From Candidatus Woesearchaeota archaeon (GTDB taxonomy: Archaea > Nanobdellota > Nanobdellia > Woesearchaeales > UBA583): a stretch of 64,000 nucleotides of DNA. A program made the translations under genes and the position numbers. The stretch lies in the NCBI GenBank assembly GCA_047602745.1, contig JBLKOJ010000001.1, positions 7,585 to 71,584 of the forward strand, given 5' to 3'. The notes beneath the pieces were generated by a model, which was not told the origin of the DNA, did no database searches, and worked only from the letters and a program-made list of their open reading frames with translations. Below, piece after piece: positions 3,556 to 7,372 of the stretch (within the stretch, counting starts at the first letter, position 1; each line of letters begins with the position of its first letter).

Positions 3556-4506
3556 TCACAAATCATTAAAAATTATTTCTTTTAATACTCCTTTTTTTAT
3601 TAATTCCAAATTAAAAACATAATCATTATGAACAAAAGTTTCATATAAACCTTTTTTAGTTGTATTCCACCCCAACCCATCAGTAATCCAAATTAAATCT
3701 ATATTTTGATTTTTAAGAAAATTATGTACATATTGGTACTCTCCTGCTGTTGCTTTTAATTTTGAACCTCCACCTCCATAATAATTTGTTTCTAACAAAT
3801 ATAATTTATTAGATTTCTTATTGAATATAGCAAAATCGAAAATTCTATTTGACTTATCAATTTGAATTTCAAAATTCCACTTATCTTTTATCTTCTTTTG
3901 AGTTGCTTGTGAGATAAATTCTAAATCATTTTCAGAACTAAAATTTTCAATAATTACTTCTACAATTCTCTCCATTGAAGTTCCAGTTCTATTTTTTCTA
4001 GCATTTGTGTCCATTCCAACTTCAACACCCATACAATAATCAACTATGTTTTTAATATGTTTATTTTCAAATAAATCTTTCAAACCTGTTTCCTTAAAAA
4101 ATACTAGTATGTCTTTTTTTAATTCATCATTTAAATCAGCATTTATATCAAAAAGAATTTTTTTATTTTCTGAAATTAATTCTTCAAAATCATCTATAAT
4201 ATTTAATTCATTTAATTTGTTATCTCTTACTGCAATTAATATTGGTAAAGTTTTTCTAACTTTTGGATACTCTTTTACAAGAGAGATAAATTCTTCCTCC
4301 AAATTCTCTTTTCCAATTAAATAATTCATTAAATTTAACTCTTTTTCAATTTTTTTCACATTTTTTTTAACTTTTTCAAAGTCAGTAAAAAAATCCCAAG
4401 TAAAAATTGAACTTGATAAAGTATTGATCAAATAATCAAAAACCTCTTCTTCATTTGATAATTTTAAATCTTTATAAATTTGTAATTGTTTCATTTTTAT
4501 TTTCAA
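3556..4506 (-). CDS. Type II restriction endonuclease, DpnII/MboI family (GATC-specific)
   Basis: Motifs GVEVGMDTNARKNRTG, ETNYYGGGGSKL and WITDGLGW match what I recall of the DpnII family. The gene overlaps the upstream Dam-type methyltransferase by 4 nt. Confidence 0.6.
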   Translation of the reverse strand: MKIKMKQLQIYKDLKLSNEEEVFDYLINTLSSSIFTWDFFTDFEKVKKNVKKIEKELNLMNYLIGKENLEEEFISLVKEYPKVRKTLPILIAVRDNKLNELNIIDDFEELISENKKILFDINADLNDELKKDILVFFKETGLKDLFENKHIKNIVDYCMGVEVGMDTNARKNRTGTSMERIVEVIIENFSSENDLEFISQATQKKIKDKWNFEIQIDKSNRIFDFAIFNKKSNKLYLLETNYYGGGGSKLKATAGEYQYVHNFLKNQNIDLIWITDGLGWNTTKKGLYETFVHNDYVFNLELIKKGVLKEIIFNDL

Positions 4507-5336
4507 TAATTAGTAATTACTACTTCATTAATCTTTCCCCTCTTATCTCCATTACAATTAATAATTCTAGTTGCTTGAACATAATGAATATTGTAATTCA
4601 AATATAACTCTTTAATAAAATCTGTATCACTATTACTCTGCATTATATAACATCCTTTTTTATTTAATTTATTATATGCTTCAAATAATTTTCTTTGTTC
4701 TTCTTCCAAAAAATTATCTTTTGAATATGTTGTAAAACTCTGTCCTTTTTTTAAAGGATAGTAAGGAGGGTCTAAATATACAAAATCTTCTTTTTTTGCT
4801 AGACTAACTACTTTTTCAAAAGACATTACTTTTATAGTTACATTTTGTAATAATTTTGATACTCTTCTTAATTTCTCTTCTTGAATAATGTCAGGATTTT
4901 TATATGAACCCATAGGAACATTAAATTGACCTTTTGAATTTACCCTATATAATCCATTAAAGCAAGTTTTATTCAAATAAATAAATCTTGATGCTCTTTC
5001 TAATTTAGGTAAATTTTTTGGATCTGTTGCACGAATCATTAAATAATATTTTTTTCCTTCCACCATATGATATTCTTTATGTTGTTTTAACTCAACTATT
5101 AATCTCTCAACATCATTTTTTATAATATTGTATGTGTCAATTAACTCTTCATTTATATCTGAGATAATAATTTCAGTAGGATTATAATTCTGAATTATGT
5201 AAAAAAATATTGCACCACTTCCTAAAAATGGTTCTAAGTATCTGTTAAATTTTTTAGGAAATAATGGTTTATATTGCTCAATTAATTGAGTTTTACCTCC
5301 TGCCCATTTTAAGAATTTAGGAATTTCAACACTCAT
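4503..5336 (-). CDS. dam: DNA adenine methyltransferase, Dam/DpnM-like (alpha-class N6A MTase, GATC)
   Basis: N-terminal KWAGGKTQL...FNRYLEPFLGSGAIFF (SAM-binding motif of the Dam family) and catalytic DPPY (LDPPYYP). Confidence 0.85.
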   Translation of the reverse strand: MSVEIPKFLKWAGGKTQLIEQYKPLFPKKFNRYLEPFLGSGAIFFYIIQNYNPTEIIISDINEELIDTYNIIKNDVERLIVELKQHKEYHMVEGKKYYLMIRATDPKNLPKLERASRFIYLNKTCFNGLYRVNSKGQFNVPMGSYKNPDIIQEEKLRRVSKLLQNVTIKVMSFEKVVSLAKKEDFVYLDPPYYPLKKGQSFTTYSKDNFLEEEQRKLFEAYNKLNKKGCYIMQSNSDTDFIKELYLNYNIHYVQATRIINCNGDKRGKINEVVITNY

Positions 5337-5638
5337 CTTATTTAATTACATTGAAACATTATTTAAAATTATGTTTTTAAATAAAGTTCTCTGCTTCATT
5401 TTTTGCTTGAACTAATGAATCAAATTCAAAAGAATCAATGTATGAACTTGAATTGTCTTCAATTTTTTCATCAAAAACATCTAAAACCCAAATTTTAGAA
5501 CTTTTATCAAAAGTGATATAAAAATTATACTTTGATGTAATTAACTCAAACTCACAATTTGCTATTTCTTTCCATTTTTTAGTTTTTCTTAACTTATTCT
5601 TAACTTAATTTAAATACTTTATATATTTAAATCTTTGT

Positions 5639-5893
5639 ATGGATTGGGAGTTATATGCTTGGTTAAAAAGAGGAAAAAGGAGAAAAGAAGTTTTAGAAAT
5701 TATAAATTCTAAAAATAAACCCCTATCAGTTAACGATATAAAAAATGAACTCAAGATAGCTATTTCTCAATCATCTTTTACTGTAAAAGAATTAATTGAT
5801 AAAAAATTAATCTCCTGTTTAAACTCAGAAGATAATATTGGAAGATTATATGTAATTACAGAAAAAGGGAAAAAACTAATAAATAAAATATAA
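5639..5893 (+). CDS. Small winged-helix DNA-binding protein (84 aa)
   Basis: wHTH-like pattern (LSVNDIKNELKIAISQSSFTVKELIDKKLI...GRLYVITEKGKKL). Transcribed divergently from the dam/REase operon. Confidence 0.45.
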   Translation: MDWELYAWLKRGKRRKEVLEIINSKNKPLSVNDIKNELKIAISQSSFTVKELIDKKLISCLNSEDNIGRLYVITEKGKKLINKI

Positions 5894-5894
5894 A

Positions 5895-6545
5895 ATGGAA
5901 TATAATACTTTACTTGACGAAGTTAAAAAATTAAAATTTGATCTCAAAAAAACAATCTATTCAAAAGATGATGTAGAAATTTATTTAATTAGACCAACTA
6001 AAGTTAAAGGAAATTTCAAAAATTATGATATTAATAAAAATTTTCAAGTATTTTTAAAAACTAAAAATAGAGAATTTAGACCCAATCATTTAAGAGTAAT
6101 AATGGATTTATACCTTAGAAGTTTATCAAGACCTGATTTAAAAGAAGAAATACTAGAACTAGTTGATTTAATTTTTTACAAAAAAGAATTTTCAAACTTA
6201 CTAGAAAAACTTAAACAAGAAACTTTCAATAATTACCTCAATAAAAATTTAGATGTTACAATTTATTTGCTAACTCTATTTGTAATAGAACAAGATTATA
6301 ACTATTTTGGAAAAAGTTTCTATAAACCTAAAAGTACTTTTTTAATAGGTTGGGTTAGACAAGTTTTATGTGATAATTCGAGAGATTTAGATAATTATAT
6401 TATGAGTATTTGTAACAATCAACCACCCAAAACTAAATTCACTGAAAAAGATTCTAAAATTAAAAGAAAAATTCAAAATAAACAAAGTATCTCCGTAAAT
6501 AATGAAAAATATGAGGAAAATCCTAAAAAATTATGGTATGTTTAA
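5895..6545 (+). CDS. Hypothetical protein (216 aa) co-transcribed with the wHTH gene
   Basis: ATG lies 1 nt after the upstream TAA. The stop overlaps the convergent MTase gene. Confidence 0.4.
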   Translation: MEYNTLLDEVKKLKFDLKKTIYSKDDVEIYLIRPTKVKGNFKNYDINKNFQVFLKTKNREFRPNHLRVIMDLYLRSLSRPDLKEEILELVDLIFYKKEFSNLLEKLKQETFNNYLNKNLDVTIYLLTLFVIEQDYNYFGKSFYKPKSTFLIGWVRQVLCDNSRDLDNYIMSICNNQPPKTKFTEKDSKIKRKIQNKQSISVNNEKYEENPKKLWYV

Positions 6546-7372
6546 ATTATCTTTACCTCTTCTTTTTTACTTTCAATTTCAATGATTGAATTTTGAATTT
6601 CAGTAGTTAAATTCATTCTTTTTAATGCTAATTCTAAGTATTCTATCTCTTTATCAATACCAATAAATTTTCTATTTAGTTCTTTTGCAATAACTCCTGT
6701 TGTTCCTGAACCCATAAAAGGGTCTAGAATTACTGCTCCTTCTTTTGTTGAAGAAAGAATAATTCTTCTTAATAATTCAAGTGGTTTTTGTGTTGGATGT
6801 TTTCCATGAATTTTTTCTCTTTGAGGTGTTAAAGGAATACTCCATACACTTCTCATTTGTTTCCCAGAAGGAGTTATCTTATCTTCCCATTTCCTCATTT
6901 CTTCATAATTAAAATAATGAGATTTATTCTCAGATTTTCTAGCCCATAAAATTGTTTCATGTGCATGTGCAAAATATTTGCAAGATAAATTTGGTGGTGC
7001 ATTTGGTTTAAACCAACTAATCTCATTTAAAATTTTATAATTTGATAATTGTAATGAGTAACCCACTTGATATATATTATGCATTGTTCCTGAAATCCAA
7101 ATTGTTCCATTATCTTTTAAAATTCTTTTACACTCTGAAATCCATTTTAAAGTGAATTTCAAATCTTCTTCAAAACCCCTTGACTTGTCCCATTCTGCTT
7201 TATTAACAGATACAACTTTTCCAGCTCTACAAGAGATTCCTCCATTTGATAAAAAATAAGGAGGGTCTGCAAAAATCATATCAATAGAATTATCTGGAAG
7301 TTGTTGTAATATTTCCAAACAATCATTATGAAATAATTGAATTTCATCATTTTTATAGTAATGTGAAACCAT
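6542..7372 (-). CDS. DNA methyltransferase, beta-class N6A/N4C (DpnA/HinfI-like)
   Basis: FADPPYFL catalytic motif precedes the SAM motif DPFMGSGTTGV, which is the beta-class order. Length 276 aa. Confidence 0.8.
   Translation of the reverse strand: MVSHYYKNDEIQLFHNDCLEILQQLPDNSIDMIFADPPYFLSNGGISCRAGKVVSVNKAEWDKSRGFEEDLKFTLKWISECKRILKDNGTIWISGTMHNIYQVGYSLQLSNYKILNEISWFKPNAPPNLSCKYFAHAHETILWARKSENKSHYFNYEEMRKWEDKITPSGKQMRSVWSIPLTPQREKIHGKHPTQKPLELLRRIILSSTKEGAVILDPFMGSGTTGVIAKELNRKFIGIDKEIEYLELALKRMNLTTEIQNSIIEIESKKEEVKII

Follow-up and report, generated by a model that had tools for sequence, protein, structure and literature searches.

GATC is the best-studied site of DNA methylation and restriction. 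The DpnII system of Streptococcus pneumoniae as well as MboI and LlaDCHI are built from three protein families, i.e., a DpnM-like methyltransferase (MTase) of the D12 class, a DpnA-like MTase of the N6_N4 class and a DpnII-family restriction endonuclease (REase). The genes form the dpnMAB operon, where they are contiguous and co-oriented, and the one site has two MTases that differ in class (PMC3812788). Here we describe a locus at positions 3556-7372 of a 64,000-nt stretch of DNA from a Candidatus Woesearchaeota archaeon (the window), in which the same three families are present with the same inferred GATC target and two MTases of different classes likewise would serve one site. The locus differs from dpnMAB in that the genes are not contiguous. 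The D12 MTase gene is directly followed by the REase gene, the N6_N4 MTase gene is located 1.2 kb away and converges on a different gene, and two extra genes encode a controller and a second candidate REase. DpnA is a competence-linked methylase of single-stranded DNA, to which the N6_N4 enzyme of the window is likened by its sequence.

A locus with two REases for GATC is said to have been described by Sekizaki et al. in 2001 (J Bacteriol), where SsuDAT1I of Streptococcus suis reportedly comprises two MTases and two isoschizomeric REases. Both of these REases reportedly belong to the DpnII/MboI family, whereas the second candidate REase of the window is unrelated to DpnII, and we know of no controller gene in SsuDAT1I. 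Type II systems with a controller (C) protein, such as PvuII, BamHI, AhdI, BclI and Esp1396I, have a small DNA-binding gene immediately upstream and translationally coupled, and a conserved repeat in the promoter of that gene. Both features were also found in the window. The C-proteins are of the Xre/HTH_3 type and their C-boxes are inverted repeats in bacterial sigma-70 promoters, while the window controller is a MarR-like winged helix and its repeat is direct (two to three copies of TTCTTAAC with an 11-bp period) and abuts an archaeal TATA-like box. Among the archaeal or bacterial REases with folds other than PD-(D/E)XK, PabI, a restriction glycosylase for GTAC, is a small protein of restriction type (~200-226 aa) that is paired with an adenine MTase and whose sequence is without a nuclease motif. 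The second candidate REase of the window, with 216 aa, is similar in this, but its structural model has no similarity to PabI or any other entry in a Foldseek comparison to the PDB.

We estimate the probability at about two in three that the region represents two complete Type II restriction-modification (R-M) systems with the same GATC target, placed back to back. System A, on the minus strand (5336 to 3556), would consist of the DpnM-like MTase followed by the DpnII-family endonuclease. System B would consist of a plus-strand operon (5639 to 6545), encoding an 84-aa winged helix-turn-helix (wHTH) protein and the 216-aa protein, and of the convergent DpnA-like MTase (7372 to 6542). Both MTases would place N6-methyladenine (m6A) on the GATC sites of the host, and incoming DNA would be attacked by both restriction enzymes at its unmethylated GATC sites. 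The wHTH protein would bind the TTCTTAAC direct repeat abutting the TATA box of its own promoter, and thereby determine when and how strongly the co-transcribed toxic gene is expressed, like Xre-type C-proteins do in bacteria. Because both systems would share GATC methylation, a second nuclease costs no extra methylation, and we speculate that two unrelated nucleases could resist phage anti-restriction proteins aimed at one fold. All five open reading frames (ORFs) examined were located at the coordinates and on the strands given in an earlier reading of the window (the first-pass annotation). Its assignment of three of them to R-M families and of the two MTases to their classes also holds, with profile scores far above the family cut-offs and the corresponding motif order.

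The DpnM/DpnII half of the locus is ordinary. The product of 3556..4506 (minus strand; 316 aa from a TTG at 4506 or 312 aa from an ATG at 4494) belongs to the DpnII/MboI family. It matched PF04556 with an E-value of 5e-91 and 305 bits (cut-off 23) over profile positions 2-277 of 278, matched PADLOC REase_II at 1e-95 and kept all invariant columns of a 10-member DpnII alignment. Its orthologue in a close relative, L007 (fetched loci are denoted by L and a number), is 96.5% identical. The protein is predicted to cut unmethylated GATC and to be blocked by m6A, with which a ratio of observed to expected GATC sites (O/E) of 0.38 in the window is consistent. The D12 MTase gene (4503..5336, minus strand) is located upstream of the DpnII gene in an operon-like arrangement. 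Its product matched PF02086 (D12 class; E-value 8e-67, 226 bits) and TIGR00571 'dam' (310 bits, cut-off 115), and DpnM was its best PDB relative (2dpm, 248 bits). Since motif I (FLGSG) at residue 37 precedes DPPY at residue 189, it is an alpha-class N6-adenine MTase of the DpnM/Dam type. The GATC specificity predicted for the pair in the first-pass annotation also holds. The 4-nt overlap described between the two genes depends on the start codon of the REase gene. It is present with the TTG at 4506, whereas the in-frame ATG at 4494, twelve bases downstream and in agreement with the 312-aa gene call of L007, leaves a short gap instead.

In L007, which is 88-97% identical to the window, the D12 MTase was called in two pieces of 46 and 230 aa (L007 2151-2983). 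This is a frameshift or an assembly error, and the DpnII gene of L007 looks intact. Directly downstream of the DpnII gene the window carries a DUF7768 gene (3112-3519, minus strand) that resembles the PHROG 'nucleoside 2-deoxyribosyltransferase' families. It is absent at that position in L007, where a 94-aa neighbour abuts DpnII.

System B would be a C-controlled Type II system with a candidate nuclease from an unannotated family and an archaeal MarR-like controller with a candidate operator. The candidate restriction enzyme is the 216-aa protein encoded by 5895..6545 (plus strand), listed as an unknown in the first-pass annotation, for which genomic context predicts GATC as the target and whose family we call F216. 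No family was found for it in Pfam, NCBIfam, PADLOC or PHROGs, where the only matches were below threshold (DUF5903 in Pfam and Hfq in NCBIfam), and a PDB profile search gave 0 matches at E <=10. The AlphaFold2 (AF2) model had a predicted local distance difference test score (pLDDT) of 95 and a predicted template modelling score (pTM) of 0.91, and a Foldseek search of the PDB with this model revealed no solved relative (best E-value ~1, template modelling score (TM) <0.2). A remote homology to DpnII was considered and rejected, as hhalign gave a probability of 0.3%. Altogether, the family libraries, the PDB profile search, Foldseek and the hhalign comparison to DpnII identified no recognisable catalytic fold or motif in the protein.

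A first search revealed about 70 homologues, each of ~200 aa, as well as an identical protein in a metagenome-assembled genome labelled Candidatus Woesearchaeota, and a branch in gut Lachnospiraceae added a further 233 clusters. Wherever a source names members of the family, the label is "hypothetical". When 1.8 billion representatives were searched exhaustively with a profile, only 119 hits were obtained, all of them <=240 aa and free of fusions, and the ten most distant relatives from this search likewise had neither a Pfam domain nor a fusion. The conserved core across the divergent family comprises an FRPNH segment (F61, P63 and H65), a QL..IEQ segment (Q127, L128, E132 and Q133) and R155. 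The family is spread patchily over both domains and was found in DPANN, methanogens, Bacteroidota, Lachnospiraceae and Omnitrophota, while plasmid and phage collections contained no homologue with either an archaeal or a Lachnospiraceae query. It is an unannotated and widespread candidate nuclease family.

We fetched 95 loci with a member of the family and annotated the neighbourhoods using the window proteins as probes. In nearly all of the loci a D12 and/or an N6_N4 MTase gene was adjacent to the family member. In dozens of genomes the family member forms a two-gene pair with one MTase, which is either of the D12 or of the N6_N4 type. These pairs include bare convergent ones with overlapping 3' ends, either with D12 only (e.g., L012, L014, L026, L033, and L053) or with N6_N4 only (e.g., L019, L031, L036, L055, and L072), and in the latter the two genes meet in the same way as in the window, where the 4-nt overlap spans 6542-6545. 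Identity to the window enzymes is 45-69% for the D12 partners (compared to the DpnM-like MTase) and 46-67% for the lone N6_N4 partners (compared to the N6_N4 MTase). Nuclease neighbours were counted within a radius of 2.5 kb in those 59 loci whose flanks extended 2 kb or more to either side. In 47 of them, this radius was free of DpnII genes, MutH-like genes and small PD-ExK genes, and all but one of the 47 had a D12 or N6_N4 MTase (46/47). Some Lachnospiraceae among them carry DpnII further out, and about 28-30 loci were without any such gene in the whole fetched locus.

Neighbour clustering identified no obligate partner nuclease of the family, and this possibility was rejected. The only other broadly recurrent neighbour was a small gene of the Xre helix-turn-helix type (39 loci), which was located directly upstream of the family member in about 32 loci, often with a 4-nt overlap. 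For the Bacteroidota-type Xre protein tested, the best matches were the solved controllers C.AhdI (6e-17) and C.BclI (2e-14), while the Lachnospiraceae-type neighbour was more generic (C.BclI at 4e-4). Bacterial members of the family hence use true C-proteins. C genes are located upstream of and co-transcribed with REase genes, whose expression they delay and limit (PMC12707154). No other single argument for a toxic restriction component encoded by the 216-aa family is as strong as this C-protein gene directly upstream. In other archaea (L018 and L093-L095) we found a unit in which the wHTH gene and a gene of ~206 aa in the R position are flanked by the N6_N4 and D12 MTase genes, without any DpnII gene. 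Because this unit and the two-gene pairs recur without DpnII, the plus-strand pair of the window forms the centre of a separate system, to which DpnII is a variable addition. Judged by this context, the 216-aa protein is probably a restriction enzyme, which would cleave or otherwise damage DNA.

A check for GATC under-representation had been suggested in the first-pass annotation. In the window, 53 sites were observed and 138 expected, and no other 4-mer was depleted as strongly. In the 62 loci (590 kb) without DpnII in the fetched segment, GATC was the most depleted 4-base palindrome (O/E 0.50) and ranked first in depletion in 27 of the 62. Near family members without DpnII nearby it was the most depleted of all 136 4-mers, both for loci with D12 only (O/E 0.39), for loci with N6_N4 only (0.54) and for loci with both MTases (0.53). 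Every NGATCN flank class was depleted (O/E 0.32-0.62), which argues against a longer site. Since the family pairs interchangeably with D12 MTases of the DpnM clade and N6_N4 MTases of the DpnA clade, both are expected to confer the same protection, and exactly this pair of MTases is known for GATC (PMC3812788). Provided that the 216-aa protein is a restriction enzyme, its site is therefore with high probability predicted to be GATC.

With respect to other palindromes, GGCC was over-represented in the window (18 sites observed, 7.4 expected), whereas the Lachnospiraceae loci L057-L089 avoided it as strongly as GATC (O/E 0.32). This suggests a separate GGCC system in those Lachnospiraceae.

The controller gene of System B, 5639..5893 (plus strand), ends one nucleotide before the start of the 216-aa gene. 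Its 84-aa product had only sub-threshold wHTH hits in Pfam and no HTH_3 hit. The AF2 model (pLDDT 93.2) superposes on MarR-family regulators, with MarR, ST1710 and MepR as the top Foldseek matches in the PDB (TM 0.75-0.79), which bears out the earlier label of wHTH and describes the protein as a minimal MarR-like winged helix. The wHTH family contains 23 clusters with 55-100% identity. Including the window, nine archaeal loci with this family were examined, which stem from Woesearchaeota, Nanobdellati, Methanolobus, Methanosarcinales, Nanoarchaeota and metagenomes. In eight of the nine loci the gene is located immediately upstream of the 216-aa family gene, the exception being the degenerate L092. 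The wHTH protein takes the slot of the C-protein in archaea, and it is likely to control the 216-aa gene. Of the two explanations offered in the first-pass annotation for the plus-strand gene pair, the one of a dedicated wHTH controller different from Xre-type C-proteins is supported.

Comparison of otherwise unrelated regions upstream of the wHTH gene revealed two to three copies of TTCTTAAC in direct repeat with 11-bp spacing. In the window, the candidate operator (5586..5604, plus strand) has two such boxes and the exact sequence TTCTTAACTTATTCTTAAC. When 895 kb of fetched DNA was searched on both strands with up to one mismatch, all six matches, from five loci, ended 35-39 nt upstream of a wHTH start codon. 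In four loci that had been retrieved by the protein and not by the motif, an exact copy is likewise present and ends 35 nt before the ATG, which is an out-of-sample confirmation. For the nine wHTH loci as a whole (9/9), the distance from the end of the repeat to the ATG is 35-39 nt. The single 8-mer is not enriched in the window (7 seen and 6.1 expected), where a double box with up to two mismatches is expected 0.37 times by chance. As the motif is unremarkable in the window by itself, the case for an operator rests on the positional conservation across loci. Palindromic operators resembling C-boxes were also considered upstream of the wHTH gene and rejected, since nothing sets the inverted repeats of the AT-rich spacer apart and the conserved element is a direct repeat.

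Directly 3' of the operator is a TATA-box-like element, ATTTAAATA (5608..5616, plus strand). The repeats are followed by TTTAAATA in the window, L007, L013, L018, and L092-L095, while L038 instead has a TTTATATT-like stretch. The element is located about 23-30 nt before the wHTH ATG, and by analogy to archaeal promoter architecture it would be a promoter element. Its distance to the ATG suggests a leaderless or short-leader transcript, and the geometry of operator and TATA box suggests autoregulation at the level of TBP/TFB recruitment, with the wHTH protein presumably binding the TTCTTAAC repeat. We know of no archaeal analogue of C-protein control that was defined earlier, and the wHTH protein with the TTCTTAAC operator would thus be the first.

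L092 (2651-4060) has a wHTH gene with a perfect operator, which is followed by two small ORFs of 152 and 162 aa, the latter PD-ExK-like, and no member of the 216-aa family. An IS66 transposase gene is located nearby, and the L092 module is degenerate or recombined. The divergent spacer of the window also contains a small ORF of 73 codons (5380..5598, minus strand), either a remnant or non-canonically started, which is 84% identical to a called 74-aa gene of L007 (3024-3248) and has a weak homologue in L018. The ATG of the L007 gene is AAG in the window, where no in-frame ATG, GTG or TTG is present, and the position of the lost start falls within the TTCTTAAC repeat of the candidate operator.

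Several observations weigh against the reading of two GATC systems. DpnII is additionally present in about 20% of the loci, and MutH-like or small PD-ExK genes are present in some, and the 216-aa family could thus be an accessory of GATC modules and not a nuclease. In Lachnospiraceae loci, a further and divergent N6_N4 MTase gene lies next to the pair of C gene and family member. The avoidance of GATC, determined in loci with the family, could stem from other GATC systems elsewhere in those genomes.

The alternative that survives best, although we consider it unlikely, is that the 216-aa protein is another component of a GATC module, e.g., a reader of the methylation state, a repair nickase analogous to MutH or a non-catalytic partner of a nuclease, and that its regulation by the wHTH or C-protein has a different cause. 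The lack of a recognisable catalytic fold or motif would agree with this, as would the co-occurrence of the family with DpnII (19 loci), MutH/Sau3AI-like genes (7), a small PD-ExK ORF (4) and GmrSD (L093), and the presence of other small ORFs behind the wHTH gene of L092. On the other hand, the 216-aa gene is the sole module gene encoding neither an MTase nor an HTH protein in about 30 diverse loci, and the convergent overlapping pairs in the style of M and R genes, together with the patchy spread across domains, are in line with a selfish R-M unit. For a repair nickase, one would expect MutS/MutL as neighbours and not a controller, and C-protein control immediately upstream is a hallmark of a toxic REase gene (PMC12707154).

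The extra nucleases at loci of the 216-aa family were of different kinds. MutH/Sau3AI-like ORFs ('DFEDGELKTNK') were found in L028, L029, L039, L046, L060, L086, and L088, an ORF of ~177 aa with a PD-(D/E)XK-like 'DIDLVW...VEVKTD' motif was found in L018, L077, L094, and L095, and the GmrSD gene was found in L093. The family members and these nucleases together form small GATC-centred defence clusters.

The System B MTase gene, 6542..7372 (minus strand), converges on the 216-aa gene with a 4-nt overlap. Its product matched PF01555 (N6_N4_Mtase) with an E-value of 4e-64 and 217 bits, and since DPPY at residue 36 precedes motif I (FMGSG) at residue 219, it is a beta-class N6-adenine MTase. It is 53-57% identical to the MTases that occupy the DpnA slot in classical cassettes of Lachnospiraceae with the order D12, N6_N4, DpnII (L062, L068, L071, L075, L078, L080, and L081). 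On the reading of the 216-aa protein as an REase, this enzyme is most simply its cognate MTase, and it would methylate GATC.

The identity of the MTase bears on a second alternative, namely that System B is a genuine R-M system for a site other than plain GATC, such as GANTC or a longer or related sequence, and that two specificities are present at the locus. The best NCBIfam and PDB matches of the enzyme were to CcrM, which is specific for GANTC (269 and 235 bits, respectively), the MTase sequence gives no certain specificity, and the additional divergent N6_N4 MTase beside the C and R genes in Lachnospiraceae points in the same direction. However, GANTC was not avoided, with an O/E of 0.95 in the window and 0.87 in the loci with N6_N4 only, where GATC is the most depleted 4-mer. 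The interchangeable pairing with either MTase clade would be expected only if both confer the same protection, and the depletion of all NGATCN flank classes speaks against a 6-bp superset of GATC. The 276-aa enzyme aligns to residues 7-271 of the 366 residues of CcrM and is without the CcrM C-terminal domain, and DpnA is itself known to resemble enzymes of the HinfI/CcrM type. A GANTC specificity of the CcrM/HinfI type was therefore rejected as the leading reading, as GANTC is not avoided, GATC is most depleted and the MTase groups with the DpnA-slot enzymes. We regard a site other than GATC as quite improbable.

In some loci a fused N6_N4 MTase with two domains (466-533 aa) replaces two separate MTases beside the family member (L010/L011 1444-3009, L064 6614-8215, and L063).

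The departure from a contiguous dpnM-dpnA-dpnB order noted in the first-pass annotation is real, with D12 and DpnII on the minus strand, two plus-strand genes and N6_N4 on the minus strand. It had been explained there, as the other possibility, by insertion into an ancestral three-gene system. A single DpnII/MboI-type system whose second MTase was separated by an unrelated cassette without a restriction role would agree with the presence of all three components, with the similarity of the N6_N4 MTase to the DpnA-slot enzymes and with the contiguous cassettes of Lachnospiraceae, but it is very improbable and was largely refuted by the context survey already, since the supposedly inserted pair recurs with its flanking MTases without DpnII (L018 and L093-L095), in dozens of genomes a single MTase is the only partner of the 216-aa family, and genuine C-proteins drive it in bacteria. 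Furthermore, composite loci with DpnII were found in at least five gene orders (window/L007, L013, L038, L001/L016, and Lachnospiraceae), which argues for repeated juxtaposition of modules with the same specificity and not for a single insertion into a dpnMAB ancestor.

R-M systems of this type had also been thought to be rarely described in archaea with tiny genomes. This may hold for the literature, where a survey of REBASE included only six complete DPANN genomes (PMC10609329), whereas such loci were common in metagenome-assembled genomes of DPANN. Our literature search revealed no paper linking R-M, Woesearchaeota and GATC. Type II REases are notoriously under-detected in archaea (PMC10609329).

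If the reading of two GATC systems is true, a second, structurally unrelated family of GATC enzymes is common in human-gut Lachnospiraceae and in DPANN, where it is labelled "hypothetical" everywhere, and a gap in R-M annotation would be filled. The family would be a possible new reagent or a new fold, and some apparently orphan MTases of the Dam/DpnA type would not be orphans. The wHTH protein and TTCTTAAC offer a testable promoter-operator pair for the timing of toxic genes under archaeal TBP/TFB-dependent transcription. The repeated co-location of non-homologous GATC nucleases (DpnII, MutH-like and the 216-aa family) on shared methylation bears on the layering of redundancy in defence islands. 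More tentatively, all of this may be joined into one statement, which we find possible but rather doubtful as a whole: the 216-aa family would be a widespread, unannotated REase for unmethylated GATC with a fold without a solved relative and possibly a non-canonical chemistry like that of PabI, and in archaea a minimal MarR-like wHTH protein would control it from a direct-repeat operator fused to a TATA box and would represent a new class of R-M controllers.

Elsewhere in the window, genes encoding GatE, a family B polymerase and a class I LysRS mark the DNA as archaeal. A stretch of 1.5 kb at 38984-40511 contains no ORF longer than 45 aa and has a GC content of 0.18. It is located at the minimum of the cumulative GC skew, where the skew changes sign, and TTTAGACAA-type repeats cluster within it at about 39810-39835 and 39985-40050. 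This stretch may be a replication origin.

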